The translations under genes were made by a program, and so were the position numbers. From contig CM120640.1 in the NCBI GenBank assembly GCA_051362555.1, forward strand, positions 17,484,001 through 17,548,000: a DNA stretch of 64,000 bases, written 5' to 3'. This document shows positions 5,501 through 31,113 of the stretch, in pieces (position 1 is the stretch's first letter; the number at the start of each line of letters is the position of its first letter). This DNA is from Lingula anatina (taxonomy: Eukaryota > Animalia > Brachiopoda). Below the pieces are notes generated by a model that searched no databases, was not told the origin of the DNA, and saw nothing but the letters and a program-made list of their open reading frames with translations.

Positions 5501-7802
5501 TGTCAAAGAGATATATTTCTAAACAAAAATAATTATCTTCCACAGATTTAAGAAGACAAAAGGGATGTACTTAGCATGAAATTTATCTTTTTCAGACATA
5601 AATGTTTTTTCCTTCTTAAAACAATAGCTTCATATTCTAGATTAATTCTAAATATATGGACTGCTCTAGAAAGCCATCTTCCCAGCATTCTTGCTTTATA
5701 AAACACAAGCTCTGGCTTTTGTACATTGTTATTGAATGTGTGTGTTCCAACTGTTGTTTTACATTACCAGGGTGAGAGCCAAGCTGAGTTAATCACCTTT
5801 TTACAGTTGTCTTTAAAAACAGTACTTCACAGCAGCTAACATGTGCACAAGGTGCTTCTGGTCAATGTGATATACTTCATGTGTGCATGTAAATTGGGAA
5901 CTATCCTCTTATCAATTCATACCAGCCTCAACATAAAAAATTCCTTCTTTTCAAACCAAAAAATACATTTTTTAAATTGTGTCAACCATACAACAAAAGC
6001 CTAAGCATGGCAAAGATGACCATAAACCAATTATTATTATTGTTTCAAAATTATAGAATTTTTAATAAGCCTGAATTACCATTATATTCCAAACTGAACA
6101 GTTTTATTTGTGACAGCCTCCCCCACCTATTTATCATTTCCCAATCCCAATTTATCACTGTTACCAATAGTGTGTGGATGGATAAGTGCACTGATCCTAG
6201 CACCTCATTTATCATTGCATCAGCCCAGCATTCCAATATCCCCTTCATGAATGCTTCATTGATTCAACTCTACTACAATGTCAACTATGCAGGTGTGCCA
6301 GTGTTTGTCATCAGACTTTTTCTTACTTTACAAGATCAATACCAGCTTTTGATAAGCTTTTCTAAAGAAGCATGCAATCAATAGCGCCATCCCGGAGCAC
6401 AACTTCAGACAACTCAACTTCTGACCGTGTTAGAATGGCATTAACTAAGACAATAAATAGCTTTGCTTCTTCACCTTTCTGTCTAAAGATTCCCTCAGAC
6501 ATTAAAGGTCACAGCGCTAGCCTGTGATAAACATCTACACAGCTCTACATTCCATTCTTCTTACAGAGGCAGCCTTTACTAACAGAAAAATCACCACTGA
6601 CTATCCCTGAGAAAAAGAGTAAAGTGGGGGAGGGGCAAATGTTAACTACCATTTCTTACTGTACTTTTTCTGAACTTTTCAATACTTAATGAAAAAATCA
6701 CTGGTTCTTCACAATTTTAATGGAATCAATCATGAAAATAATTTTATATGATAGCATCTTTCTCTGTTTCAATATTTACCATTTACACTTTTCACATTAT
6801 TCAGGTAGCACTTATTTTACATCCACTATGCAATCTTTAGAATGTCGCTGGTGAAAGGAAAAACATTTTGAACTAAAGTTAACTTTTGACAACAGGTCTT
6901 TGCAAATTTCTAGTACCATAATAAAATCATTCTTTGTGGGGAATCTTGAAACCGAATAACCTGGGTTGCCCAATCCTAATAAGAAGCAATCAATTTGTAC
7001 TGAGTTGACCAGGCTACCATAGGTCAGTTTACGTGTCCTGTCAGACCTGACCCCTGCCAAACACATGATAATGTCCAGATGGGAGTCTAGCATCAAGTCT
7101 AGAACTAAAATAAGGTGGGACTTCTGGAGTTTACATGGTATTAGCTTTTACCAGACACAGGCTTCCTGGTATGGTAAAGCTAATACCATGGCATACTAGT
7201 ACATAGTGGACAATATATGACTGCATGGCAAAATCTAATTGATGAACTGATACCACAAAATACATAACTGTAGTCGACAACTAGCATAAAAGAAGTCTAA
7301 TGAATAAAAGAGCCTGCACATTAACAAACTGCCCATCAAGCCTGCATCTGCCAAATGCTAAAGATGATTGGTGAAGTGTGACATGACCAGTGCCTCTGCA
7401 CCTTGCATAATTACGCAGGTGCATTTGCACTACCATAACATGTTAACATGCCCAGCCAACTTTTCCTTAGCATAATTTCTTGGCATTTCTACACTTTCTC
7501 TATCTGTTAGTAAGGTAATTCAAGTCACACATGCCGAAAACATTGACACATGGACTCGGAGGGGAGAGCATATTTTCAATTAAATCTGTAACCATTAACT
7601 TCAAGCATCAGCCAAACACAGAGATGTTACCTTGCCAAAATCATATTATCCATGATGTCCTGTCAGGCATGGGAGGCACATCATTTCATATTTTATTTAC
7701 TATCATGAAAAAACAGAAAATTTATACTTAAACAATATAACAAGAAGAGGGTGGGATCTTATTTTAGGTGAAAGTAAAATAAGAATTGGCTATACACTTT
7801 AC

Positions 7803-8189
7803 CTCATCATAACCCATCTTGACCAGATGTAACAGCATATGCCTGTTAACACTGTCTACATCCAACCCATTGCTACTGCTAGGACTGTTCCCTGCACTGG
7901 CAGAATCGCTATTCTGGAAAGGCTTTAAGCTATCCCTTATCTCCGCAAGAGCCTTTTGGTGATATCCCAATCTTCCTGCTTTGCCTACACCAATGCGGTC
8001 TGCAATATTGGATGTTGACTGACCAGCCTCTGGTGGCTTTATTTGCATAGGCTCTGGCTTCCCACCATCAGCTGGCTGGTTCTTACGCAGGTGGCTGAGA
8101 CTGTCGCGGATTTCATGAAGCATTTGCCGGTTATTACCGGTAAATGTAGATAGGAGTGGACGGCGTCCCCCCGCCTCCTTGCGTATCAT
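7803..8189 (-). CDS. LATS1: LATS/Warts kinase first coding exon (N-terminus and start of UBA domain)
   Basis: ATG at 8189, 129 codons, GAG|GTAAAG donor. Motifs RQMLHEIRDSLSHL, YHQKALAEIRDSLKPF and VNRHMLLHLVKMGYDE match LATS1 RQMLQEIRESLRNL, HHKALQEIRNSLLPF and VNPQMLQDLQAAGFDE. A likely acceptor (T10-cag) at 8399 would extend the exon as 5' UTR to 8398. Confidence 0.92.
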
Positions 8190-8399
8190 GTGTCCCGCAA
8201 TAATGTGCGACACAAAAACACTTTACATCCCCTTCAAATTTCATGTAAACACTGGTACTCTCTACACTGGTATTGAATTAAAGCGCATGGTGCAATCCAC
8301 AGATCATCACATTGTGGGATACTCCATTCAATGAAACCTTTAGGCCATGTGAAACTTAAATTGTGTTTCCTCTTCTAAGAGTAATCCCTGGAGGCTTTC

Positions 8400-12847: not shown

Positions 12848-15823
12848 CTACGACACAAAATATCTCAGAATTCCACGAATAAAAGGAGTGAGCGTTGCTG
12901 GCTCACGCTCATACGCGTGCATAATAGGCATCATGGATGCTGCAAACACCACAACGGACCCATAAGGAATGTACTTACAAAAGCCCTTTTCCAACCCTAG
13001 TAGAAAGAGAGCATTGATGGTGTGAGGAATAAGAAACATGGCAAGTTCCTTTCTTCGTGACGCCCTCTCAAATAAAACACTCAGTCCGCAAGTGAGGCCG
13101 GCCAGTAGTGGGATGTATGCCGGCAGTGGGGGAGGCTTGCCCGACATATTCCTAAGCAAACATATAACGTACTTGGCTAGCATTACCATTGCTGACAGAA
13201 AGGTGGCTGACATCACAACGTTCTTCAATAGGGACTTGAGTACTTTTTTAGGCCTGGAAAATAAAATGGAAATGAAATATCTTCATGATCAAATTGAGGA
13301 ACCTTCACTTGATTTTAAAATTGACCAAAAAGACAAAGTTAACAAGTATGAAAATGTTACTCAAGGGAATGAATATTTTATTTTTCATCAAATTCTTTAT
13401 AACAAGAAATAACCTCTGAAGGAAGAGGAAAAAAGAGAGAAAGAAAAAAAGAAAATTAGCCATATAATAAGCGCCGCTTACTGTTGACGTAAAAGTTTTC
13501 TCTTGAACAGAAGAATTGGCGCCACATGAATAGGTAGATACAACTTGGCAAACCCCGGCCAACTTTGCAGCAAGTCAAGGAAGGCATGTCTAGTGCACGT
13601 ATTGTCGTGGATTTCACCACGCGCGCACGAGACGAACACGCTTCCTTGCTTTCTGAACACCTTCTCCAGGTTAGAGTTCGTGTAGTCTCTGGACCACTTG
13701 AGTACCGAGTAGTAGTAGCCTTTTTGTAGCAGTTGTGGTTTAAGGGCGGTGCAGTAAACCATGAAAGAACAACAGAGGCAAAACAGGGTGGTGTAACCAT
13801 GGGGAATAGGGCGGACCACGCCCTGGCGGTTTGCGGCATCTGCAAGAACACCTACAGCACGGGCCAGTGCAAACAGAGCAATAGTTCTTCGTCTCATATT
13901 GCTCTCCACAAAGAGTGACAGGCCAGCAATACCCCCAGATATGACATAGTTCATTCCATTCTATAATATAGGATAAAAAAAAACAACCTGTACATGAATA
14001 CACTGCAAACATACATGCAATACTGTAGTTTAATCATTTTATTCATTCACTAAATCGATGCGGGTTGGACAGAATCAATGAAATATCATGTTAAAAAATG
14101 GTTACCTAACAAACAGAAAGAACGCCGCCTAATAAGTTAATCCACCAAGAGTATAGAAAAAAAATTAAAATTGTTAAAGCACATGTAAATTTACCTTCTT
14201 CAGATCGTAATTCTGACATAGTTTAAGAAACAAGTTGTACAATGCCGGGTAGAGACCAAGGAAAGAGGCAAAACGGAAACAATCTTTGCTGAATAGCTCT
14301 TTCCACAGTGGCGGATAGCTGCAGATATCAAAATGTATATATATTAGAAAAGACACGAGGAATCGTGTCTCTTCCAGAGCCATAGAGAATTTTTCACTAG
14401 ATATTCACAGATATATCTCTAGCAAATTCTGTGCATATTACTGTGTCCAGGGGAAATTTATTTACAGCATTTCAAAAAAGACGTCACCACTCAGCTTGCT
14501 CTGGGGAGAGTATATGAATGACCCTAAGCATCTTCGGTGTTACATGACATAGCCTAACCGCCCTGTGCTTAGATATTTATGTGTTCTATTATGGCTATGG
14601 GAGATTGCTGCTTTGAGAAAAGTACAGCTTATTTCATATATATGCGTTGCCTGTTATTGTATACGATTTAAATTAGTATAAATGGCAAAGAAAAGTGTTC
14701 TTTCGAATAAATGTGATATTGAGGACACCTGTGGAGATAAAAAACAAGAAGGTCAATCGCGACCAGACAGTGCTGTAATCGGCATGCATTATATATATAT
14801 TCCCCAGGACATAAACTGATATTTCTCTGTAACTATAATAGCACCCTAGAAAGTCCACCAATGGAAATATTTCCGTGGCACTAATCAAATCAATCAAAAC
14901 GAAGCAATTCCCCACCCCGTGCCTTACCTATTATTAGTAAAATTGCCCACATCCTTATTTTTGCCACAATTAGATCTAGATTTTATTGTTTGTGAAGCAT
15001 CCCCGCTCCCTTAAGCAAAATCCTGAATACGTCCATGGCGACTATGGTTTTATACGGTATCATCCTTATCACTATGACAGTAGAACTAGGTTAAGTGTAC
15101 ACTCGTGGCCACGATTAAGTTCTAGTATATGTAATTATGTTCCGATAACAGACACAACACTGTCCGGGCACAGATTTATCAGTTAATATAGGCCTACCAT
15201 TGTTTTTCTATAGGGCGCACATACTCGTAAGTTCAAAAGGTCAATATTATATTGTTGGGTTGAAAATACATGTAGGCATATTTAGCATGCTAAACATGTA
15301 CATATACTAAAGAGCTCCCTCTAAACTCCCTATGAAGGTCTGTTGTACCCTTTCTACCTAGAAAAGCACTGTCTCAATGAAAATTTGTGCTTATTCCTCA
15401 TCCCCTTACGTATGACATGATGTAAGACATATCTACTGTATAATATAAGCGTATGAGAGGCGTACTCGCCGGCAACTTATTTATATATAAGTATGAACTA
15501 CCTCTAAGGCAATCGATCGCACAAAGGATTATAAATGATGATGTGTTTTCACCAGGAATAGACTGTTCTATTGTGTTATATTGAAGCTATGTCACCGTCA
15601 TACAGAAAAAAATAAAATCAAATACATAAATTTACCGCTTTCTGAAAGGATTTTTCATAAGAGCTGTTATTATCTTGAAGGCGGCATATAAACCAAATCC
15701 GCTACCAGCACCTTTACAAAAAATCTGCAATGCATCTTTGAAATTAACTCTCCTTTCCTTCTTTCGGTCGACATTTTCCGAGAATGTCCGAGGTCCGTCT
15801 CCACTGTATGCATTGGTTGCCAT
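12848..15823 (-). CDS. TMEM135-like (Tim17/Tim22/PMP24-related) multi-pass membrane protein, 4 exons, 398 aa
   Basis: Exons 15823-15636, 14318-14195, 13960-13482, 13253-12848 all have GT-AG borders with compatible phases (2,0,2) and total 1197 nt. Motifs ISGGIAGLSLFVESNMRRRTIALFALAR, C..GEIHDNTC...FAKLYLPIHVAP and GLSVLFERASRRKELAMFLIP are characteristic of the TMEM135 family. Confidence 0.85.
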
Positions 15824-17104: not shown

Positions 17105-18886
17105 ACAAGGCAGCAAAGCTGTCAAATGTACAGACAAAAAACAGGAAATAACTATGCACAAAATAGGCTACTGTCAATTCTGATGCAAAAATACATTATG
17201 TTGAATTGCAAATTCAACATCAAATTTTAATTATCCTCAACAGGTAATACCAATGTAATTAAAATATGTGACAAGTTTACACTTTGAAAATGTATAACTT
17301 CCAGAAAAAGAAGTCACTTAGACTGCTTTTCCAACTCAGACTGCATTTTAGTCCTGTATTTCTTTTTTGAAAGTTTGGCAATCATAAGTAACATGGTTTT
17401 CCCATAATGGTGATCATGGCAGCAGCACCCAAAATTGTGTTTTCTTCTATTCTGATGCCATATTACATAATGGTTATCAGCATAATGACCGTCAATTTTT
17501 AATAATAAAATATGCGTATCATGGATTTTCAGAAAATGTGACTAGCATGGGTCTTCAAGCCCGTGGAACTTCAAAGTCACACCTTGAAAATGCCAATATG
17601 TGAAAAATTAAATTTTCACAAAATAACTGTTTAACTGGCAGTAAGAACTACCAAACAGACTGTATTTCCTACTGAAGCTGTATTTTAGTCCCATGTTTCT
17701 TTCCTGTAAGTTTGAGAACAGTAAATGACATGGTTTTTCTTAAATGGTCATCATGGGAGCAGTGCCCAAAATAGTTTTTTTTCCAAATTTTGATGCAATA
17801 TTACATAATTTTTAACAGCATAATGACCATCAACTTTAATAATAAAATATTAGTATCATGGACAAATAGTAAACGTGACTAACAAAGGTTTTTAGGCCAA
17901 TGGAACTTCAAAGTCACACCTTAAAAATGCCAAAATGTAAACAAGACTGCACTGTTCTGAAATGGGTTTATTTCCATTTTTAACACTTTTTTTAACATAA
18001 AACAAAATTAATAGGTTACTGCCATTTTTATAAGATCAACTAAGAAAATTGATGAGATGTGAAAAATATTAATAGAACAGTGTTAAATGTCCAATTTCTT
18101 CCATTCTGAGATTCTGAACATAGTGAATGATTGAATCTGACAAACTGCAATGATATGAGTTTATTTCCATTTTTGACACTTTATTACATAATACACGATA
18201 ACAAGTTTACCATCATTTTTACATAATCAACTAACAATGTTGTAAAGATGCAGGAAATGTCAAACAAACACTTTTACGTATCTTATTACTTAAATAATAA
18301 GGCTATTAACATGCCTAAGAATTAAATCTGAGGAAATCTGAGGAAATGAGAAAAAACAGCATAACTTCTAAAATAATGGCCCCATTATGCTCATTTTCGA
18401 AATCAACCTGCGTTTTAGTAAGATTGACCATTCCTGTGAGTTTAATGACAATTGGCCTATCTGTTTTTCTTATATTGTGTTTACAGTGTTGCATATATGC
18501 TGAAAAATGAAAAAACAGCATAACTACTAAAATAGTGGCCCGATCATGCCGATTTTCGAACTTGACCTGCGTTTTAGTAAGATTGATTACTCCTGTGAGT
18601 TTCATGACAACAGGCCTAACGGTTTTCCTTAAAATGTGTTTACAGGGTTGCATATATGCTGAAAAGTGAAAAAACAGCATAACTTCTACAATAATGGCCC
18701 GATCATGCTGATTTTCGAACTTGACCTGCGTTTTATGAATATTCATCAGCTCTGTAAATATAAATCCAAAAAGTAAAACTGCCCTCCACTTATCGTGTTT
18801 ACAAGGAAAGTGCACGGCGCCGGCGACGGCGACGACAGACGCAGGTGATGGCAATGTGTACAGACACATCTGTGTCTGTACATAAA
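17105..18886 (-). mobile_element. Helentron/HINE-type element, family B, with ~160-bp (x3) and 337-bp (x2) internal tandem arrays
   Basis: Reverse complement of the element starting at 32895. It has the terminal palindrome tgtacagacacatctgtgtctgtaca (~18858-18882), a GACGGC microsatellite, and a subterminal repeat aatgtacagaca at ~17126. gaacttcaaagtcacacctt recurs 337 bp apart. Confidence 0.85.
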
Positions 18887-19385
18887 AATTATGATAATAA
18901 TGGGGCCATTTGGGCAGCCATACCATACTGTGCATCAAATTTGTATTACACGCACTTGTACATCAGCATTACATGGGTATAGCATAAGTACTATCCAACT
19001 TAATAGTGCAGGAGAGTGCCAGATGCACACAGTCACTCCTCAAGAGAGACAAACGTAGATTTTAATCATTTTAATCCAAAATTCCAACATACATCTTCAA
19101 CTGATAACAAATAACAACATCATATCCATTTTTCTCTAGATTAAAGGTGCACTTGGCCCCACTCCCATAGACACTACTGATAGTACTGGTCTACGTGGAT
19201 CTACCCAACTCTGTGGGGACTCGCACTGATAGCAGTCACCTTAACTGAATCACATGGCTCCTCCTGGTGTTGAGTAAAATACAGAAAAGCTCATGATTAT
19301 ATGAGCACGTTGGACACAAAAGGAGGCGTGTCATTCACTTGAGCTGATTGCACTTAGCAAGAGTCCAGAAGTGATGGGTCAATCA

Positions 19386-19702
19386 CAGGCCTACCCAACT
19401 ACCAGACTCGGCACCGAATGTTCCTGAATTCACCGGTAAATCGGACCGAACTACCCGTTTTCAAGGTGTGTATCAGTACGCATTTCACAGTATCAGATGC
19501 GACACTGCTCTTGCCTAGTACGCAATGTGATAGTGACAATTCTCAGCGGGGTTGAAAAGCATTGCATCACCACTCAAAATTTGTTCAGTGTATGATACTG
19601 TGTAATGCGTAATGACTCACACCTTAAAAACGGGTAGTGTGGTCTGATCTACCGGTGAATTCAGGATCATTCGGTGCCGAGTCTGGTAGTTGGGTAGGCC
19701 TG
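19386..19702. mobile_element. Fold-back MITE with ~110-bp TIRs and 5-bp TSD (AATCA)
   Basis: caggcctacccaactaccagactcggcaccgaatg... is mirrored by ...cattcggtgccgagtctggtagttgggtaggcctg. AATCA occurs at 19381-19385 and 19703-19707. Confidence 0.9.
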
Positions 19703-19734
19703 AATCACTGCATATCAATGGTGTCTATGAGAAC

Positions 19735-19958
19735 GGGGTATTACATTTTGATGTGGAAGGTTATTACGTGAGATTAAACCAGTGATACAAATAATTTCAA
19801 GGCAAACTTGTTTAAGTCCTCACTTGTTGTATAAGAAACACTGAAACAATGGGGTATTACATTTTGATGTGGAAGGTTATAACGTGAGATTATAGCAGTG
19901 ATACAAATAATTTCAAGGCAAACTTGCTGAAGTCCTCACTTGTATAAGGAACACTGAA
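19735..19958. repeat. Two-copy tandem duplication, ~116-bp unit
   Basis: ggggtattacattttgatgtggaaggttat...acactgaaa occurs at 19735 and 19851, near identical. Confidence 0.9.
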
Positions 19959-20526
19959 AAAAAAACAGTTATGTAAACAAATGATTTTGATGCTGTTAAC
20001 ACTGCCATAACAAAGTTAACCAAATGTCTTACTGGCCAATTTTGTCTTAAAATCACTAATTATAAAAATCTGCTACTGCAGTGTGTTATCTTAAGTTGCA
20101 ATCATGCAGAATTGAAGACTGAGATCAAATTGAAAATGCAACTTTGGTCTATATCACAAGAATCCATAGTATATCCCTAAAAAAATCCTTTACACTGGTA
20201 AATATAAACTGAATATTTTAACTGGTATTCCTCTTTAGACTAACTTGAGGACGAAGACAACTTGGTGACATCCATCTATGCAGCTTGGGATGAACACAAA
20301 AAGCAGATGGACTTGTTAATGGATTGCTAATAATATTAAGCACAACATCATTACATACAATTATGTTGTAATTAAAAAAATATCAGTTATAAAGGACAGT
20401 ACTGGTCAAAATGTACGTCTTAAACCATCAAAATCTGTTAGTTTAGCATTAGCAAATATATCTGCACTCCACAAGTAAGGATGAAAATTTAGTCAACTCT
20501 GTTGCGAGACCCACTGACTACTTTTA

Positions 20527-20702
20527 TCAACTCCAGCGCCCCCTTTCAGGTTGGCGTTCTCTGGGTGTGGCTGTAATAATGGTATCCACACGGAGTATCA
20601 TCTCAGCAGCCTCTGCAGCAGACAACAGCATGCAGCTCTTAACTTTGAAGGACTCTGTCACTTGGCAATTTGACATATCACCAACTTTGCCGTGCTTCAT
20701 GT
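20527..20702 (-). CDS. CCT2: Duplicated alternative terminal coding exon (16B) of CCT2
   Basis: tttttttctcatag|AC acceptor in the same phase (1) as the proximal terminal exon. It encodes [58 protein letters not shown], 31/56 identical to exon 16A, with an intact frame. Confidence 0.8.
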
Positions 20703-20848
20703 CTATGAGAAAAAAATGACAAAATTGCGCTTTTTTTAACAAGTTGAAGTCTTGCTTAGATAATGTCATATGGCTGAAGGTTCATTGATTTGAAAAATAT
20801 GTCCAAACAAATGCTAGGACACTGTTTCAACAAATCATCAATAAGGTG

Positions 20849-21007
20849 CAGGCCCGTAGCCAGCAATTCCAAAAAGGGGGTTCTTTTTTTGAGAAAGTGG
20901 ACCTTTTCCAATAAAAACTTCTTGTACCTAGATCAAATTTTAACCAGAGTGGACCTTTTCCCAGCAAAAGCGGCGGTTCTTTTGAACCCCCCCTGAACCC
21001 CCCCTGA
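20849..21007 (+). mobile_element. Truncated hAT-like MITE fragment
   Basis: Starts caggcccgtagccag, has repeated agtggacctttt motifs and gaacccccc repeats. A degraded reverse-orientation relative appears near 49310-49495. No right TIR seen. Confidence 0.45.
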
Positions 21008-21782
21008 GGTGTTCTGTTTCACAACAGTTCAACCCAATGGTCTTAAATTTTTCGGAGAGAATTTGCCCACAGACACTTTGGACAAATGATTTCTCATGAA
21101 TTCTTTCATACCGAGAAACCTTCAGACATAGCATCACATGTTCACTTGGCACCATTTTTTGTATGAATATATTTTTTTCATTCTGTACAATTTTATAAAG
21201 AAATTTACTAAAAATTTCTACCTTTATAAATAACCACTGGTAATGAAATGACACACATGACAGTAAAGTACTACGACTTGTTTTAAATTGAAAGATGTTA
21301 GATATTAAAATTAGAATACTACTACTACTGTGTTGTTTTTATAACTGTGTTAGGACTGGCCATTGCACCTGGTATGGCAAGGGGCTGAATTGGTAAAAAG
21401 CACAGGGAGCTAATTTTTGTAACAAAGAAAGTGCTTTATGACCAATTAACAACACCAGTATGCCTAAAATATCTTGTTTCACAAATTTTTAAGTATTTTG
21501 CCACAACAACTTGCATCCTATGCCAAAAAGTTTTAGGTCAATGCAAGCATCAGTTTTATATTTACCTCTGTGTGCACCAAACATTGTTGCACATAGGTAA
21601 TTTGTTGGTAGCTCCCAAAAGGTGATAAACCAAAATAGTTCCATTTGCCAAGCAAAAAAGTTTTATACAAATATTATAACAAGTACATAAATTGAGCACA
21701 TTTAGACACATACCCCAACAATCTCACCTGCACTTGATTCCCACATGGATAGATACAGTTAGTGAAAAAGCTTACAAAATCA

Positions 21783-22260
21783 ACAAGCAGCAAAGCTGTT
21801 AAATGTACAGACATAAAGCAAATAATGATGCACAAAATCGGTTTGTTGTCAATTTTGATGCAATTTTACATGAAAATTAAAAACAAAATCAACACAACAG
21901 TTAATTCGGACATAAGGATTATTTAAGTGGCAGTAAATAAGAAAATATGTAGGTAAAGTCATATTCAAAATCTTCATATGACTTTTGGTCAGGCTTCTAT
22001 ACTAACTTTTCCAATATTTCCTACGGATTGGGAGAAATCTTATTATTCTAATATTGCTTGAAACCATTTAATTTTAAAAATATGCTAAAAAAAGGGAAAA
22101 AAAGAGCATAACTTTTGGAAAAAATGGTCCTATCACACTCTTTTTTGAACTGGACCAGTTAAATGGTTTTTTACTTATAATATCATCTCTGAAAGTGCAC
22201 TTTGAGCCAAGGACAGACACAAGTGATGGCTGTATGTACAGACGCTGTCTCTGTACATAA
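21783..22260 (-). mobile_element. Short diverged copy of HINE family B
   Basis: Both ends match 17105-18886: acaagcagcaaagctgttaaatgtacagaca at the left and the palindrome atgtacagacgctgtctctgtacat at the right. Confidence 0.65.
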
Positions 22261-22544
22261 AAAAAGTCTACTTTTTGAATTATCTAAATATGGTTGTTAT
22301 TCCAGTACTCACCATTTCATACAGACTTCATGCTCCACTCAACTGAGGTTCGATTATGCATGAAATGCTGAATAAGCTGCATGCAATGCGTGGTATTGGA
22401 AAGTGAATTAAATTATTTTGAGGGCAGACAACTTTGGCTAAATCTATACTTTTTATTTTTAGTTGTTATCCAAATTTTAGCACGTAATGAACAATATGCA
22501 CCTCTTACTATGTCAGCAACCCTGCAATATCTGTTAAACTTTTG

Positions 22545-22900
22545 TTTAGTTGGTAAGTTTGCAGTTATTTCATAAAATATACAAGTTTTTGACAACAAAG
22601 AATGATGGCCCCGATGCCTAAGATCTTTATTGAATAGCTCATTTACTGGTTTAACTTCAAAACATTTCCCATTTCTTTCTAAGTCAAATTCTATAAGATT
22701 TACGATTTGGATTCATGTAATACATTAGTTGCTGGTTAATTGGTAGGTTTGCATTCATTTCACAAACTGTTCAACTTTTTGATAATAAAGAATGATTGCC
22801 CTGGTGCCTTTTAGATTTATATTAAATAGCTCGATTTCCAGAGTTTTTCCCAGTTAAAATTCTAAAAGATTTACAATTTGAATCCATATAATTCATTAAC
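22545..22900. repeat. Diverged two-copy tandem repeat, ~190-bp unit
   Basis: ttggta(a/g)gtttgca...aaagaatgat...aatagctc...aaattcta.aagatttac.atttg is repeated from ~22545 and ~22735. Confidence 0.7.
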
Positions 22901-23490
22901 AAAGTTGAAGCCAAGTTAAACTAAGTAGTGGGAGACTATACTTTGGTCACCAAAACGAGGCACAAAATTACATATTTCACATATTCAAGCTCTTATTAAA
23001 AATAAAACCAAAACTAACTTTTTCACATTTGTTTATTTTTTATAAATACACACAAAGCAGTTGTCACTCCAAGATGATATATAATGCAACATTCAACAGC
23101 AATAAAATATTTATACTAAACAGCATAGTCCATTTTACCTCATGATCAATGGTCTATTTTTTCTTTGGTCCACCTACAAAACAAACTTCCAGAACATCTT
23201 CAAGACATGCTTATATAGTGTATAGTCTTGCTGATATGACTCTAGGCACATTCATATTACCTGAAGATTGAAGTACACATGCAACTAAGATGACTTTATC
23301 ATGATAGTGCAAGCACAGGAAAACAAGTGAAATATAGCAGTTATTTGACAAGTTGGTTCAGTCAAATTTCCCAAATGTGCCTTGAAAAGACTTGCGTTGT
23401 GGATCCAAAAATTCACACTGCACATCAAATTTCTCTCTTCTAGATAAGTCTAAAGCATGACAGACTGACTGACAGACAGACAGGTGACAC

Positions 23491-26400
23491 CTAGTGACCA
23501 TGGTCCGGAGCTCGCTGACGCGGTGCAGCTTTTATGATGTCGTCCACTCTAAGGATCATCTCTGCTGCCTCAGCTGCACTAATGAGGACTTGGCGCTTCA
23601 CTTGGTAGGACTCTGTGATTCCCAGCACTGTCACATCAGCTATTTCTCCCCTGTTCATATCTGAAACAGGAGGTGGTGGGGCATAACCATCATGGGGTAT
23701 AACCAATCAACATCGACTGCTCTTGAAACATATGTGGGAAATATTTAATAATGGGTAAAATGTTTATTGAAGGCAATTTTTTTCCCATTTTATTTCACTT
23801 CTGAAGCACAGGGCATATTCTACTACATAGGCCAATCCATCTACATTGTATAAAATACTCAAATTTCAATCAACCAGCAAGCAAATGTTTGCTCCAGATT
23901 TATAGCCTTAGGCATATATTTCAATTTGCATTTTGGATTTCAGGTAACCGTTTTTATAAGAGAATATTAAAAGGAATCTTTTAATGTTTGCAAGGTAAAA
24001 GCTTCCAGAATTTAATCTTGTTTCTGGCAGAAATAGCATGATAATTTCACTTTTTCTCTCATGTCATAAAAGCTAAGATCATCTTAAGGTTAAATATTAT
24101 TTCATGTCCATTAACAGAAAATATGGTACATGGCAAGCTATGTACAAAATACAGGCAGACATACATTCAAAGCATTTACAATACAAAACAAGCTAGGACT
24201 GGTGAAAGCAGGGTAATGATTTTTTAGTGCTTCCATTTAATCTGTACAAGGATGATAAAAACTAGATGATCAGAGCGGCAATACCGCCACCACATATTGA
24301 GCCACCAGCGAGATAAAACTCAGTTTAATAATAGCTATGGATGTTTCCATTTTAGTTGTGGAGAAATAGGGCTGGTAAATATGTGAAGTGTTCTTCACAG
24401 AAAAAGTAGATGGAGCTGTACAAGACAGCTTGGGACTAAAACCATGAGTACCGTCAGTGCTCACGCTGGTGGGCCTAATAATATGGTAATTTCTATATGT
24501 TTCTGGGATATATACATATACATATATAAAACTAATAATAAAGACAACACTGCAACTCACCCAGCCCTGTGGTGTTACGTCCTTCCTTGTGAGCTGCTCT
24601 CAACTCTGTAACGAGCTGACTGCTATCATAGCCTGCATTGTCAGCAATAATTGTGGGAAGCTTCAAGATAAAAAAAGTGGTAAGTTCTCAAATTGTACTT
24701 TCATTCAACACTTGCAATTTTCTTGATACAGTTTGGTCAACAGAGACTGTATCCGGATGTGAAAATGATTTAATATAAATTATTTTATCCATAAGTAACT
24801 TTCTTTGAACATAGTAAAAAGTTTAGTGCTCCTTTTCTGTAAATCATTTTTTCTTTTTTATTAAAAGTTACATTTAGGCCATTATCAATTACCTCTCCGA
24901 GAATGTCTAATCAGAAACTCTACAATGTCTTACCATTCTAAGAGCTCTAGCAAATCCTTCCATTGCCAGGGCTTCTTTACCAGGTGTTTTCATGGCAAGT
25001 TCTGAGACAGCATTTGCCATAAGCATCTCAGAGCAACCTGCAAAGTTGTTTTATACATGTAAATCAAATTTCAAATCAATATATTTTCACACTGTCAAAC
25101 TGCAGCAGTTGAAAAAAAAAGAGGAGAACAGGCTCTATTATCAAACTCTCATCCTATAATTACTTGGAAGTCTATAAAGAAATAAATTACTTTTATAAGT
25201 GAAACAGTTGCTCACCACCACCATAAACTGTCCTGGTTTCTTTCACAGTCTGCGCCAGAACACAGAGGGCATCATGCAAGGAACGCTCTGCTTCGTCCAG
25301 AATTTGCTGAGTAGCTCCACGCAACACTATGGTGCAGGCCTCTCCCAGAGCAACACCTTAATATAAACAAATATAAACTAGTAATCTGAAGAGTGGATGT
25401 CTCCATATGCAGAAGTCTGTCCATTAGACAGTGACAACAAAATACATGTCACCTCAGGTTTACCATTTTTTGGTATTTACAGTTGTGTCATTTTACTGGT
25501 GTTACTTTGACTGATAAGCAATTTAAATTCAGCACTTAAATTTAAAATGCGACTGGTGGTAAATTAAGAGAAAAATGGTAATGATATTTATTCTTTAGCT
25601 TACCTGAGAACTTGATGAGTTTATCCTCTCCAATGATGACTTCCTCGATGAGATCACAATGACCAAGCTTGACCAGCTCTGGGTTGTCAAAAGTGGACAC
25701 TATCTCTCCACCTGTGGTGAATGAAATATTCTGTGTGTAACATGTCACAGCATCAAAGGTTTGACTACCCAACTTAAATATCTTAAATTGCTCAAAACAC
25801 TGCATTTAAATGTGTCTTTAATGCTAATTTCATGGGTGCTAATTCAAAAATTTTATTACAACTAACAGCTACTTTGGTAACCAAGATCCAACAACCACGA
25901 TTTTCTAGTACAATGCCATTTAAATTGAATGAACATGAACATGGTTTATCTAGGTAAAAAATGGTTGATATCTACTTGTAATGTTTCTTTATTTTGACGG
26001 GAAAAAATCCCTTTATGCTGAGCGTACATAATTTACCTGTGACCAAGGCCAGTCTCTCTACTCCTTCAAAGTCAGCATGTTCAATGGCCATCACACCAGC
26101 ATCAGCAAACAACTGCTCTGGATAATTGTAAATTAACTGCCTACAAGACAACAAATACAGTTTAAGCAATAGTTGTGAAATTGAGAAAAGGTGACATGTC
26201 TATAATAGGAATTAGAAAACTTCAGAAATTCAAGATGCTTTTTTCCTTTTCTTTGAATTAATACATAAGATTGTGTACCCCCTTTTCCAAATACAGAGAG
26301 TGCATCTTTTGGTGGAGACATTAAACTGCCATTACACAGATAAGTATGGCAATGTAAACCAGACTGACCTACCTGTTAATGAAAACATTACAACCATGTT

Positions 26401-29400
26401 TAATTATCTTTCCGACTTTATCTTTCATCTTTTCCTTTTCAGCCAATTCTAATTCTGCAATTTTGGAAATGGCATCCACTCTCACTCTGGAGCCAAACAC
26501 CTGGAAAATGCAATGAGACTTTTTAAAGTAGTTCAAATAAAAAGCTATATTTTTCTCAACATGCAAATAATCTTTAGTAAAAACACTTTTTCCATCTTAT
26601 TTTATTACAATCGCCAATTAGGAATTACTACACAAAAGATCTCAATAACTCTAACCATTACCTAAAAAAGTACTAATCAGAGTGTCACTTAATTAATAAT
26701 TAATTAAGTCTAAAAGTGAAATAATATCTTACTTTTATTTTATCAGCATCCATTGACGTGTTGGCTATTAAGATCTTAGCATTTTCTACTCTCTTTGGTT
26801 GATTAACTCCAATCTTCTTCTCCAACAGAAAACCTGCAGATTAACACATCACAGAAAAATGTTCAAAGACAGGCCAACAATGCCACAACTATCAAAAACA
26901 AATTACCTATATATCCACAAATTTTCAGCACATAAAAGGCTCCTTTAACATAAATAAGCCTCAAAGACTGGTTCACATTCAAAATGTCTTATACACTTTT
27001 AAGAATAAGTTAATGTTAAAACATCTGCTGCAAAACTAGTTTTGTTCAGGTTCATCCACTTAACTATAACACCAATGTAATAGTAAAAACAACACAACTC
27101 TTCAGTGACTCACCTTCATCTAAGGTAGAGTCCAGTAGACTTCCACCAAGAATCTTGATCACTTGTATTGCCTGCAGGTCACCATGACCCTAGAAAAGAG
27201 GAGAAAAACACTTCATCACAAAACAAGAAAGCTACCACGTTCTTTATAGTATCAAGGAAAGAATAAAGATATATTATCAAACATCCAACCCTGAAAAAAA
27301 AATTTCAAGTTAGTAACAACATGCCCAACATGTTTAGAATTCTTATTATACCTCTTTTAAGTCATAATAACTCTTCGTTTTGGCCAAAAATTGGATTTTC
27401 CTGGAGTAAACGGCAATTTTCCAGTACTTACCAATGGTCAACGACCCCATTCCTGCATTCAAAGTTAGTCCAGGTTTTTTTTCCTAAATGTTTGGTTTTT
27501 TGAGATTTTAACTGACGGAGCCCTCTCTGACATTGCATAGTCACGCAATATCGAGCGATATTTTCTGGTGACCTACTTAAAACCACAGGAAAAGCAGACA
27601 ACAACAACACTATATAACAATAATATAAGATTAATAAGATATATTCGTCTTATTGCTCAAAATGCATATCTACAATGTGTGCAATTCTGGGCTTTTTGTT
27701 ATCCAACGCACTGTACAAAAACTCGCAACTTACGTCTACGGATTGCATCAACGCGTTGATTGCATGAACGCGAGAATCCGCGTGACACCCCAACGTCATT
27801 GGCAACGGATGCCTTGACGACCGTGAAGTAAGGCATCGAAAGCCCTATTGACAAGCACAGATTTTGCTTTTACTACAATAACAGCCGTTTTAGTGGTAAA
27901 ATGCAATAGAATATATTTCCATGCGTTGTTTATAATGTATTTCTTGCGGAATTTTGAATCTCAAAGGAAGAGTTATTATAGCTTTAAGTCTAAATCTAGT
28001 TTTATTCCCTTCATGTGCTTAAAACAACTAAGCTTTTTCTTCTTACCTTAAGTCTTAACACTGCATCCACAGCTAAATTTGCAAAGTGATCTTTGTTCGC
28101 AGTCAAAATCTTAGAGCTTAGGGTAGTTCTGGCAATGTTCATCAAATCCTCTCTAAATTTATCAGGATTAGCCCTACAAAAACAAGATGTCCCTGATTTA
28201 GCTGATCCACAAATTAGGAAACAATACATTTTACATATTTTGTATACAGTATTTTCCTTTCAACTTGTCACTTTATTTGTAGACGTTACATGAAGATTCG
28301 AGTTTGAACAACTTTTATGTAATAACAAAGAAAAAATACATTTCAAAAGATCTGTTTCAGATAAATGATAATATGAGTTATAAGGTGAAGGGTTATGTGA
28401 AGTCTACTACATAGGAAAATCATGTTAGCAAAGAGTAAACCTTGAAAATTCCCTCTGGACAAAAATAAATCCGGCAAATGAAATGATAAATACAGACATC
28501 AATATTTCTCAGCAATAACAAAGGTTTTGATGATAAATGCTCTGACTAAGAGTAGTGCCACATACCCATTATCTTTAGCAGACTCTTCTAAAGCTCTCCT
28601 GGCCTCAGTGACAGCTTTCCTCCAGCCTGACACTATGGTCTGTGGATGGAGGCGTTGTGCAATTAGGTGTTCAGCTTCCTGGAACCAAAGTTAATTACAT
28701 TCATAACGAGAAAGAGGAAGAAGTCCATCTGTATTTTATATTAAAAAATAAGGTTTCCTAAAAAGTATCAGACAGAAAAACAAAAGCCTGTAATTTCGAG
28801 TCATTATCATGATGTAAAGAAATTTAATTATTTTTTCGCCCTAACTCATATCTTTGAAAATTTCTGACTTCAGTTAGATACATATGCAGTAATCCTGCAT
28901 CATTTCTACTTCTTACTGCTTTTTTCATTATCAATGAATTTGCAAGTCACTTATGAAGGTTAGCATTATTACTGAAAAGTACCTTTAGTAATTCACAAGC
29001 TAATACTGTAACAGAGGTGGTCCCATCTCCTACTTCATCATCCTGTACTTTGGAAATATCTAACAGAAAACAATAAAAACAATCAGAAGTGTCAAACAGA
29101 TGAAATAATGCACTTTCTTCATCAAACCTCTGAGAAAAAAGTGAAAACTTTGTGGCACATTGATATTTGCAAGTTTTCTTTTGAAAATGCTTTATAACAA
29201 ACAAGTTTGACTCACCAACTAAGATCTTCGCTGCAGGGTTGTCCACACCTATAGCCTTGAGAATTGTAGCTCCATCATTTGTGACCTGAATTGTGTTATT
29301 TTTGTTCCCAGACTGCAAGATTTTGTCCTGAAAAGAGAATAAATTGAAGGCAGACAATGAAAAATTGGTAATACAATACCCCCAGGTTACTCATACTTCT

Positions 29401-31113
29401 TAAACAATATAATGTAAGATTATTGTATTTTTGAGTATCAGAGACATACTAGTGAAAATGTCAAGTGTACTGAACACTGAATGTAACCAGAAGCAATGAG
29501 CCTTACCAACAGTAATTTATGGCTAACATTTTGCCACTTCTTGTATTACTTTTTCTACTAACCATTCCTTTTGGCCCTAATGTAGTCTTGACTAAGTCTC
29601 CAATGGCAATGGCACCAACAAAAGAGGACTGAAAATAACAGGCAATACAAGCTAATTAATCTGGATCACAGGGATAATCTAATTTTGGCAATATGTTATA
29701 AAGCATAATAATAAGTCCTGCAAATTTGATCTGCAGTGTTAATCCAAAATTTCAAAATCAAAGCTCAGTTAATTTCAAGAGTTTTTATGATACAAAGTAA
29801 TGATAAATGTCAAATTCCCAAATAGGAAGAACAAGAAGTTCCAATTTGAAGGCCGTTACCCAGAGGTGTGGAGCGTGGAGGGAAGTGGACAAGTTGGTTG
29901 TTATACTATATCATTTGGTACTTATCAGTTGGTTGTTATGTTGTATCATTTGGTACTTACCATACGAGCAGTCTCGGACTTCTCTTCCTCTGCCCCTGGC
30001 TTGTAAATACCAATAGGCTGCATGGACACCTGAAATGAACACATTGCCAAGCCTAAACTTTATATTAAACTTAAAACAATTTGAAAGGAAAATCTGAATG
30101 GGCAGGAATGACAAAAAGAGTTTTAAAAATTGTGGATTTTTAAAAAATCATCAACCTTATGAATTGTATATGCATACTGTATACGAATATGTGACATATC
30201 AAAGTTGAAATAGTTTCTTACACTTGAGCTTCAAAATATAAAGGGCATTCAGTCATTAAACGATCAAATAATACAATGACTTTCTTGTTAAAAAATGCAG
30301 GTGGGGTTTCATCTTTACCTATCAGTTCTTTACCCATCCGTACACAGACCAAATCACTCAACAGTCCAGAAGATCAAGTCATATATTTGATATTTCTATT
30401 ACATTCTCATTTAAGACGAAAACAAATGGCACATTTCCATATGTCTCACAAGTCACGTTTGGTTGATAATGCTATTTGTAGGTTTAACATTAAGTTCATC
30501 TTGGTTTGTTTCAAACAGTATTTCAACAAAGTTATGGGTTTATCTCACAACCTTAAAGTTACCAGATTTGACAAAACGGCATCAGAAAAATGTATAAATT
30601 GTAGTTGCCTACTTTTGATCATCCTAAGTTACATAATGGCATATGAAGTCAAATATTTGCCTATAAAGCCTTGATATTTTTATGAGCGTGTTTAACGTCT
30701 GACACTGCTAAAGGATGCACTTATTACTAAAATCCGAAAAGTATATTCCGACTGTTCGGAATGGTAAGTTAGGGTGCTTTCCCAGAGATTTAGATCGATC
30801 TAAAGATTAAGATTTAGATCGACCTAACTCCCTGGGGGTTCACGCTAAATTGCAGTCAGCCGAGCGGGCACCATAGTTAATTACCCCCTTTCAGCTTTTA
30901 GTAGGCGGGACAGATGCTTAAGCCGGCCAAGCTGACAGTAATCTAGTGAGACTCCCCACAGGGATAGATCGATCTAAAAATCTATGGAAATGGGATGATA
31001 GAATATAATCATTTTGCACGTGCTTTCAATGACTTTACAAAAATAAAAGTAGCATTTTATATCTGGCACTTTGTACCAATTTAAAGAATGAAACATATCC
31101 TTGTGCTTACCAT
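23491..31113 (-). CDS. CCT2: T-complex protein 1 subunit beta (CCT2), 16 coding exons, 532 aa
   Basis: Exons 31113-31111 (ATG only), 30029-29961, 29628-29563, 29327-29216, 29059-28983, 28678-28566, 28173-28047, 27189-27114, 26833-26733, 26500-26373, 26140-26037, 25711-25604, 25356-25216, 25037-24934, 24660-24561, 23660-23491. All are GT-AG with consistent phases and total 1599 nt. Motifs: [72 protein letters not shown]. Confidence 0.97.
24261..24480 (-). mobile_element. Minimal ~220-bp relative of HINE family C in CCT2 intron 15
   Basis: The minus strand begins tattaggcccaccagcgtgagcactgacggtactcatggtttt and ends gctggtggctcaatatgtggtggcggtattgccgctctgatcatctagt. Both ends match the termini of the 55061-58017 element; there is no satellite array. 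Confidence 0.75.
27357..27987. mobile_element. Degenerate TTAA-flanked MITE (Kolobok/piggyBac-like) in a CCT2 intron
   Basis: ttaagtcataataactcttc at the left and gaagagttattatagctttaa at the right form an imperfect inverted repeat. The interior is CpG-rich, unlike the host introns. Confidence 0.5.
30772..30997 (+). mobile_element. MITE family D (PIF/Harbinger-like), copy 1, in CCT2 intron 1
   Basis: TIRs ttcccagagatttagatcgatc / gatcgatctaaaaatctatggaaa; interior near identical to copies at 45302, 50503 and 58247. Confidence 0.85.

Follow-up and report, generated by a model that had tools for sequence, protein, structure and literature searches.

The subunits of TRiC are essential proteins with very strong conservation, and the variant TRiC rings that are known involve gene duplicates, as with CCT6B, or short changes to a subunit's tail, as with CCT8. 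In mammals, CCT6B is described as a testis-specific paralogue of CCT6 with a knockout phenotype (PMC8176918), and in turkey an alternative C-terminal exon of CCT8 is reported to be used in a tissue-biased manner, in ductus deferens versus testis (PMC9922982). Among human genes more generally, C-terminal substitutions derived from tandem exon duplication account for 77 of 236 catalogued events, GNAO1 being one example (Martinez Gomez et al. 2021, PMC8373072), and terminal exons are described there as switching through alternative poly(A) choice; the main text of that catalogue and one of its supplements name no CCT gene. Here, we describe a 64,000-nucleotide stretch of the brachiopod Lingula anatina genome (contig CM120640.1; hereafter the window), in which the last exon of CCT2 is present as two tandem copies, 16A and 16B. 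The data are best read as an old tandem duplication of that exon, of which the copy 16B is weakly transcribed in some samples and is probably spliced to the shared exon 15 as a minor alternative ending; the ~56 C-terminal residues, part of the equatorial domain, would then be exchanged.

CCT2 is encoded on the minus strand, and tblastn places its coding exons between 30029 and 23491 of the window (Table 1), with no location assigned there to exon 1. RNA joints connect the upstream exons at 24660/24934, 25035/25214 and 25354/25602. The peptide encoded by 16A is 100% identical to the C-terminus of the RefSeq Lingula anatina CCT2 protein, XP_013416763.1; the next-best match of the 16A peptide is 84%. 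Exon 16B lies 2.8 kb past the 16A stop. An earlier reading of this DNA, made from its letters alone (the sequence-only reading), had placed the two exons and credited 16B with its own AG, the same phase, an intact frame and its own stop, and all of these were found where expected. Each exon is preceded by AG, begins with two nucleotides (nt) that finish an Asp codon followed by ATG, meets the donor phase of the shared exon 15 and stays open to its own stop; in 16B, the frame runs for 57 codons following the split Asp and then reaches TGA. No second copy of any other CCT2 exon is present in the window, leaving the last exon as the sole CCT2 exon duplicated there. The acceptors differ in composition over 20 nt, with 6 T for 16A, which ties for the T-poorest of the 15 scanned, and 13 T for 16B. 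The sequence-only reading also called the two exons mutually exclusive, a term that does not apply in its strict sense, in which it refers to internal exons that rejoin a common downstream exon (PMC8373072), whereas 16A and 16B each end in a stop and their own 3′ untranslated region (UTR).

Of nine candidate raw RNA runs, seven (X1, X2, X4, X5, X6, X7 and X8), each sampled to ~6% or 25–26%, were aligned to the window. A separate run search with the 16B stretch returned no RNA run containing it, a result that speaks neither for nor against its transcription. Runs X4, X5 and X6 (the P2 runs) are stranded, X8 is an oligo-dT library, and a joint or loose read end was reported only when at least 3 reads carried it. 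The joint between exon 15 and 16A (24561->23660) was recovered with 98, 83, 20 and 15 reads in X1, X2, X4 and X7, respectively, and 16A is the default, dominant last exon. The main 16A transcript end in X1 and X2 falls near 23167/23139, ~330–350 nt behind the 16A stop, with a weaker extension towards a minus-strand AATAAA at 23037-23032. That hexamer had been noted for 16A in the sequence-only reading; it is present, but the main end in these two runs lies upstream of it, and it serves at most a minor distal end there. An A-rich stretch adjoins the main end at 23139-23167, with no upstream AATAAA, and in X4 depth continues further towards the AATAAA at 23037; the ends at 23139-23167 may reflect alternative poly(A) use or internal priming. 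Two deletions in the 16A UTR, of 7 nt at 23262 and 4 nt at 23463, each occur in about half of the reads in X1 and X2 and are probably allelic.

Transcription of 16B is weaker and confined to some samples. The coding part of 16B is covered in four of the seven runs, with 18, 21, 6 and 19 reads over the exon and its UTR in X4, X5, X6 and X8 (mean depth 1.1–3.6), and in the stranded runs X4, X5 and X6 these reads lie on the CCT2 strand. Behind 16B, the transcribed length is at least 570 nt in the same four runs, including the oligo-dT library. In X4, depth on 16B is roughly 10–15% of the depth on the 16A UTR. The deep runs X1 and X2 have zero depth on 16B, which by junction counts limits its share there to below ~3–4%, and X7 has zero depth on the exon and slight depth further downstream.

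Depth stops at the 16B acceptor and is zero over the 136 nt upstream (20710-20845) in all four covering runs, where ~6 fragments would be expected if coverage were uniform. Plain read-through from 16A is unlikely, because X4 has no depth in 21106-21708 or 22312-22914, two non-repeat stretches between the exons. At the boundary itself, last-bin depths of 0.80 in X5 and 0.87 in X8 represent single reads that end at 20703 and 20705, respectively, and these are the two positions at which the intron happens to agree with the last letters of exon 15. Run X5 contains exactly one partly aligned read, with at least 20 further unlike letters, and its first mates exceed its second mates by one. The two read ends, known from their end positions alone, fit a splice from exon 15.

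A short repeat element at 20849-20992, immediately ahead of the 16B acceptor, collects numerous reads on both strands from other loci, and a 36-nt stretch at 21787-21822 draws reads of another transcript with similar flanks in X1, X2, X4 and X7, a similar stretch being present near 17110-17140. In the intron beside the 16A acceptor (23719-23919), depth is 2.8 in X4 versus 0 in X1, X2 and X7, which suggests that X4, where 16B is expressed too, splices into 16A more slowly.

The sequence-only reading had described 16B as an old duplicate under purifying selection, and three comparisons agree with it. Over the first 51 codons of 16A and 16B, the proportion of differing synonymous sites (pS) is 0.67 and that of nonsynonymous sites (pN) 0.32, corresponding to synonymous and nonsynonymous distances (dS and dN) of ~1.6 and ~0.41, with a bootstrap pN/pS of 0.29–0.75. 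Among 103 distinct homologous CCT2 segments, mostly animal and with P0014 and duplicates excluded, 16A and 16B agree at 22 of the 28 columns that are conserved at 90% or more but at only 5 of the 19 others (Fisher p = 0.0007). Simulated neutral drift of 0.5 substitutions/site retained a median of 18 of 51 residues, compared with 29 observed. Judged by pN/pS, conserved-column agreement and the drift simulation, 16B has been under coding constraint for most of its history. That it is old and was formerly under purifying selection is further indicated by synonymous sites near saturation, as 13 of 16 fourfold sites differ between the exons, and by flanks without homology: when the surroundings of 16A and 16B were compared by blastn, nothing but the exon itself matched significantly, and no intron or UTR homology is left. 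The peptide identity first given for the pair, 31/56 including the split Asp (30/55 counted from Met), was the same when recomputed, as was the count of 9 synonymously differing codons in the 13-residue shared core.

Two of the RNA runs come from a diverged source. In UTRs, the reads of X7 and X8 diverge from the window sequence by ~4–5%, which exceeds the 1.6% heterozygosity reported for the reference Lingula genome (PMC4595640), so they likely derive from a distant population or sister species. Exon 16B is present in the X8 lineage, and at a depth of at least 3 it carries 17 substitutions and 2 deletions in ~400 UTR bases versus none in ~64 coding bases. This contrast, at p 0.06–0.08 with denominators estimated from depth bins, gives weak support to present-day constraint on 16B.

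Several results weigh against 16B being a spliced and functional last exon, the first of which concern the junction. The sequence-only reading had proposed comparing the joints 24561->23660 and 24561->20702 in RNA, and while the former was seen in four runs, none of the seven gave a joint or loose end at 20702 with the 3 reads needed for reporting. The alternative last-exon use that it inferred is supported in part, by coverage that stops at the 16B acceptor in X4, X5, X6 and X8, on the sense strand in the three stranded runs, and by the two read ends described above, which lie where the joint 24561->20702 predicts. Only ~2 junction-like reads were seen where plateau depth predicts ~8 (P 0.01–0.10), and X4 has 0 such reads into 16B versus 20 into 16A. 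As junction-like reads are fewer than expected, part of the 16B RNA may start inside the exon, or coverage may be uneven. The same shortfall could mean that most 16B RNA is not joined to exon 15 at all and is instead an independent short sense transcript, or a read-through leftover that starts near the exon, and summed 16B depth, which in the final 150 nt declines from 16 to only 1.7, does resemble a 5′ end. However, depth is also uneven along the 16A UTR, where it varies up to ~six-fold in X1, and an unjoined transcript does not account for coverage that ends exactly at the 16B AG, for reads that end at the two splice-predicted positions, for the lack of X4 depth between 16A and 16B outside repeats or for the coding-type constraint on 16B. 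We therefore regard an unjoined origin for most of this RNA as quite unlikely.

The divergence of 16B adds to the case against. In a 52-column tree, its branch length is 2.0–2.3 versus 0.15 for 16A, and its residues C491, Q492, C502, T522 and T524 are each present in 0 of the 103 segments. These features could be understood if 16B once worked as an alternative exon and recently lost constraint, its RNA now being the product of leak splicing that yields little or no useful protein. Its six changes at columns conserved at 90% or more surpass the maximum of 5 for any homologue among the 103, its RNA level is low, with none in X1 and X2, and a short neutral spell (0.02–0.05 substitutions/site) would leave the frame intact with a probability of 0.25–0.57. 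If recent neutrality had to produce all six conserved-column changes, though, a rough calculation gives a probability of ~0.06 for retaining the frame and AG. The departures also appear less extreme in a second set of 245 distinct segments, which is biased towards 16B-like matches: there, 16B departs at 2 of 22 conserved columns, and 43 of the 245 others equal or exceed it. Most 16B-specific residues occur singly in that set, with position 492 being non-Gly in 10 segments and Gln in 1, and its best segments share 3 of 8 chosen 16B signature residues. The absence of 16B coding differences in the diverged X8 lineage points weakly in the same direction. A very recent or shorter relaxation of constraint on 16B may have occurred, but we consider it unlikely that the exon has passed into leak splicing alone.

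The last points against concern how widely 16B is found. No 16B orthologue was found among the best 150 representatives, 13 short matches, 43 long candidates and 80 metagenome loci, a search that had no other brachiopod genome within its reach; the long-protein search with 16B, in which 0 of the 43 candidates scored at E <= 1e-10, is a weak test. Likewise, no second copy of the segment was found in the 80 metagenome CCT2 loci, only 13 of which have at least 3 kb of downstream sequence. No 16B isoform is in the protein collection, where the RefSeq CCT2 protein is a cluster of one. In addition, the 52-column tree, which is poorly resolved, does not join 16A and 16B, and of the 103 segments from other species, 86 are nearer to 16B than 16A is (median 30 versus 27 of 47 identical). 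Such a pattern might arise if 16B were the last exon left over from a separate CCT2 copy that was otherwise deleted, or if it were an assembly artefact. Yet a 16A+16B clade is not rejected (approximately unbiased test, p-AU 0.19), and the window contains no other CCT2 exon copy. A lone exon detached from its gene would not remain constrained, reads from two studies match 16B, and the 45% protein divergence rules out an allelic or assembly duplicate. We find either origin very improbable.

Taking 16B as an alternative last exon of CCT2, we compared the peptides that the two exons encode. We take the C-terminal CCT2 segment to line the nucleotide pocket and to form the inter-subunit strand. Both peptides have CCT2/beta as their best PDB match (16A 75.6 bits, 16B 55.3 bits), the top PDB matches of 16B are all beta subunits (E 2.8e-14), and both exceed the cut-off for the Pfam family Cpn60_TCP1 (PF00118), with 36.5 bits versus a cut-off of 34.3 for the C-terminal segment. 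Aligned to human CCT2 (PDB 6qb8_b), 16B matches residues 480–531 without gaps and retains E495, K500, E509–E512, R516–D518 and P525–R526, while it departs from canonical CCT2 at L491, G492, R501, Q502, V503, K522 and A524 and has a longer, basic tail. In human numbering, L491C, G492Q, R501S, Q502C and V503M lie ahead of or at the start of the last helix, and D519T, K522T, A524T and the new basic tail fall in the last strand and tail. The retained R516 belongs to the helix-18 core, following the helix assignment in PMC10465592, and the CCT2 C-terminus is reported to lie near the disordered domain of tubulin, with the hairpin-termini contacting actin (bioRxiv 2021.03.26.436673).

Human CCT2 has a background in aggrephagy (PMC11521882), where its VLL 503–505 and VIL 513–515 motifs are reported to bind ATG8 (PMC10465592), and the sequence-only reading had pointed to these motifs in the human counterpart of the duplicated segment. 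The human forms of the motifs are absent from both Lingula exons, which at these positions have VLI and MIL in 16A and MLL and MIL in 16B. Because neither exon has an exact VLL or VIL, and 94 of the 103 homologues have Met at position 513, an aggrephagy link for the Lingula segment appears weak.

These observations allow a mechanism to be proposed. As the reads show, the default is splicing of the exon 15 donor to 16A, with the RNA ending at the main 16A site. In certain cell types or states, both the non-canonical main 3′ end of 16A and its T-poor acceptor would be bypassed, transcription would continue for ~2.4 kb, and the T-rich 16B acceptor would then be used. The RNA would end downstream of 16B, perhaps at the ATTAAA pair near 19070; hexamers of this kind had been noted near 19060-19075 and are both present, and a hexamer scan found no AATAAA between 18400 and the 16B stop. 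Retaining the T-E-S, helix-18 and V-D core, the 16B form would probably fold and enter the TRiC ring. Because its changes hit the start of the last helix, the strand and the tail near the tubulin/actin contacts, the most likely effect would be a tuned ring, with altered nucleotide cycling and altered chamber-facing tubulin/actin contacts, in a specialised cell type.

The presumed 16B 3′ UTR contains two repeats. An inverted repeat with 110-nt arms (91%) occupies 19386-19702 and would form a long hairpin if the UTR extends to the ATTAAA near 19070, and a 96-nt direct repeat (94%) lies at 19732-19943. The next gene downstream, at 12849-15823 on the minus strand, looks TMEM135-like (Pfam PF15982, E 2e-5, below the curated cut-off). 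We also considered 16B as a 5′ exon of that gene and rejected this on the sequence evidence, as the gene's apparent start codon is near 15823, ~4 kb off, and 16B is coding-constrained for CCT2. Further along the minus strand, exons at 7767-8222 and 1-1425 resemble the N-terminal part of a LATS/Warts kinase, with no Pfam match.

Table 1. Positions of CCT2 features in the Lingula anatina window, with the basis for each
Feature	Position	Strand	Basis
Coding exons 2-14 of CCT2 (RefSeq protein residues 2-444)	24934..30029	-	tblastn of P0014 against the window
Exon 15, last shared CCT2 exon; donor G|GTGAGT, phase 1	24561..24660	-	sequence and RNA joints
Exon 16A coding part, main annotated last exon	23491..23660 (170 nt)	-	RefSeq identity and RNA joint
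16A 3′ UTR	23015..23490 (lower bound approximate)	-	depth, molecule starts, hexamer scan
16B acceptor: T-rich pyrimidine tract and AG	20703..20732	-	sequence; RNA depth boundary
Exon 16B coding part, duplicated, putative alternative last exon	20527..20702 (176 nt)	-	sequence and RNA depth
Transcribed 3′ UTR of 16B, continuing past 19960	19960..20526	-	depth in X4, X5, X6, X8; X4 to 19900
ATTAAA hexamer pair, candidate 16B poly(A) signal	19075-19070, 19066-19061	-	hexamer scan

If 16B is used as proposed, a selected natural swap of ~56 equatorial CCT2 residues would reveal which 'invariant' positions tolerate change, and it would offer a ready variant for testing what the C-terminus of CCT2 does in the ATP cycle, in tubulin/actin folding and in the release of subunits. 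A reference lophotrochozoan genome also gains an unannotated isoform candidate. The single lineage, the low expression and a splicing class that is already known limit how far the finding extends. More tentatively, it is possible, if somewhat doubtful, that lingulid brachiopods use their one CCT2 gene to make a second TRiC ring specific to a cell type, exchanging a folded equatorial piece that comprises the nucleotide-side hairpin, the last helix, the inter-subunit strand and the chamber tail. Such a ring would parallel mammalian CCT6B, with splicing as its old source, and would let the function of the CCT2 C-terminal segment be probed in a natural setting.

The sequence-only reading knew of no description of alternative last exons for CCT2. 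A literature search with most subscription journals outside its reach found no description of a duplicated or alternative CCT2 last exon, but duplicated alternative last exons are catalogued and CCT8 reportedly has an alternative C-terminal exon, so the class is known and CCT2 is a case within it for which no description was found. Like the human C-terminal substitution class as characterized in PMC8373072, the Lingula pair consists of a duplicated 3′ coding exon in the same phase, encoding a homologous peptide that keeps the domain, and would be swapped by choice of acceptor and poly(A) site. Unlike that class, in which most human events are reported as conserved to teleosts, 16B is known from one lineage and has low use. 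With turkey CCT8 (PMC9922982), it would share the alteration of a TRiC subunit's C-terminus by splicing; the described CCT8 exon is an extra one between the last two exons, whereas in Lingula CCT2 a whole exon of ~56 residues, which takes in folded equatorial elements, is found beyond the usual last exon. The 16B form would resemble CCT6B (PMC8176918) as a variant subunit for a cell-type-specific TRiC ring, and CCT6B is thus a model for its possible role, but CCT6B arose from duplication of a whole gene and 16B from duplication of an exon within one gene.

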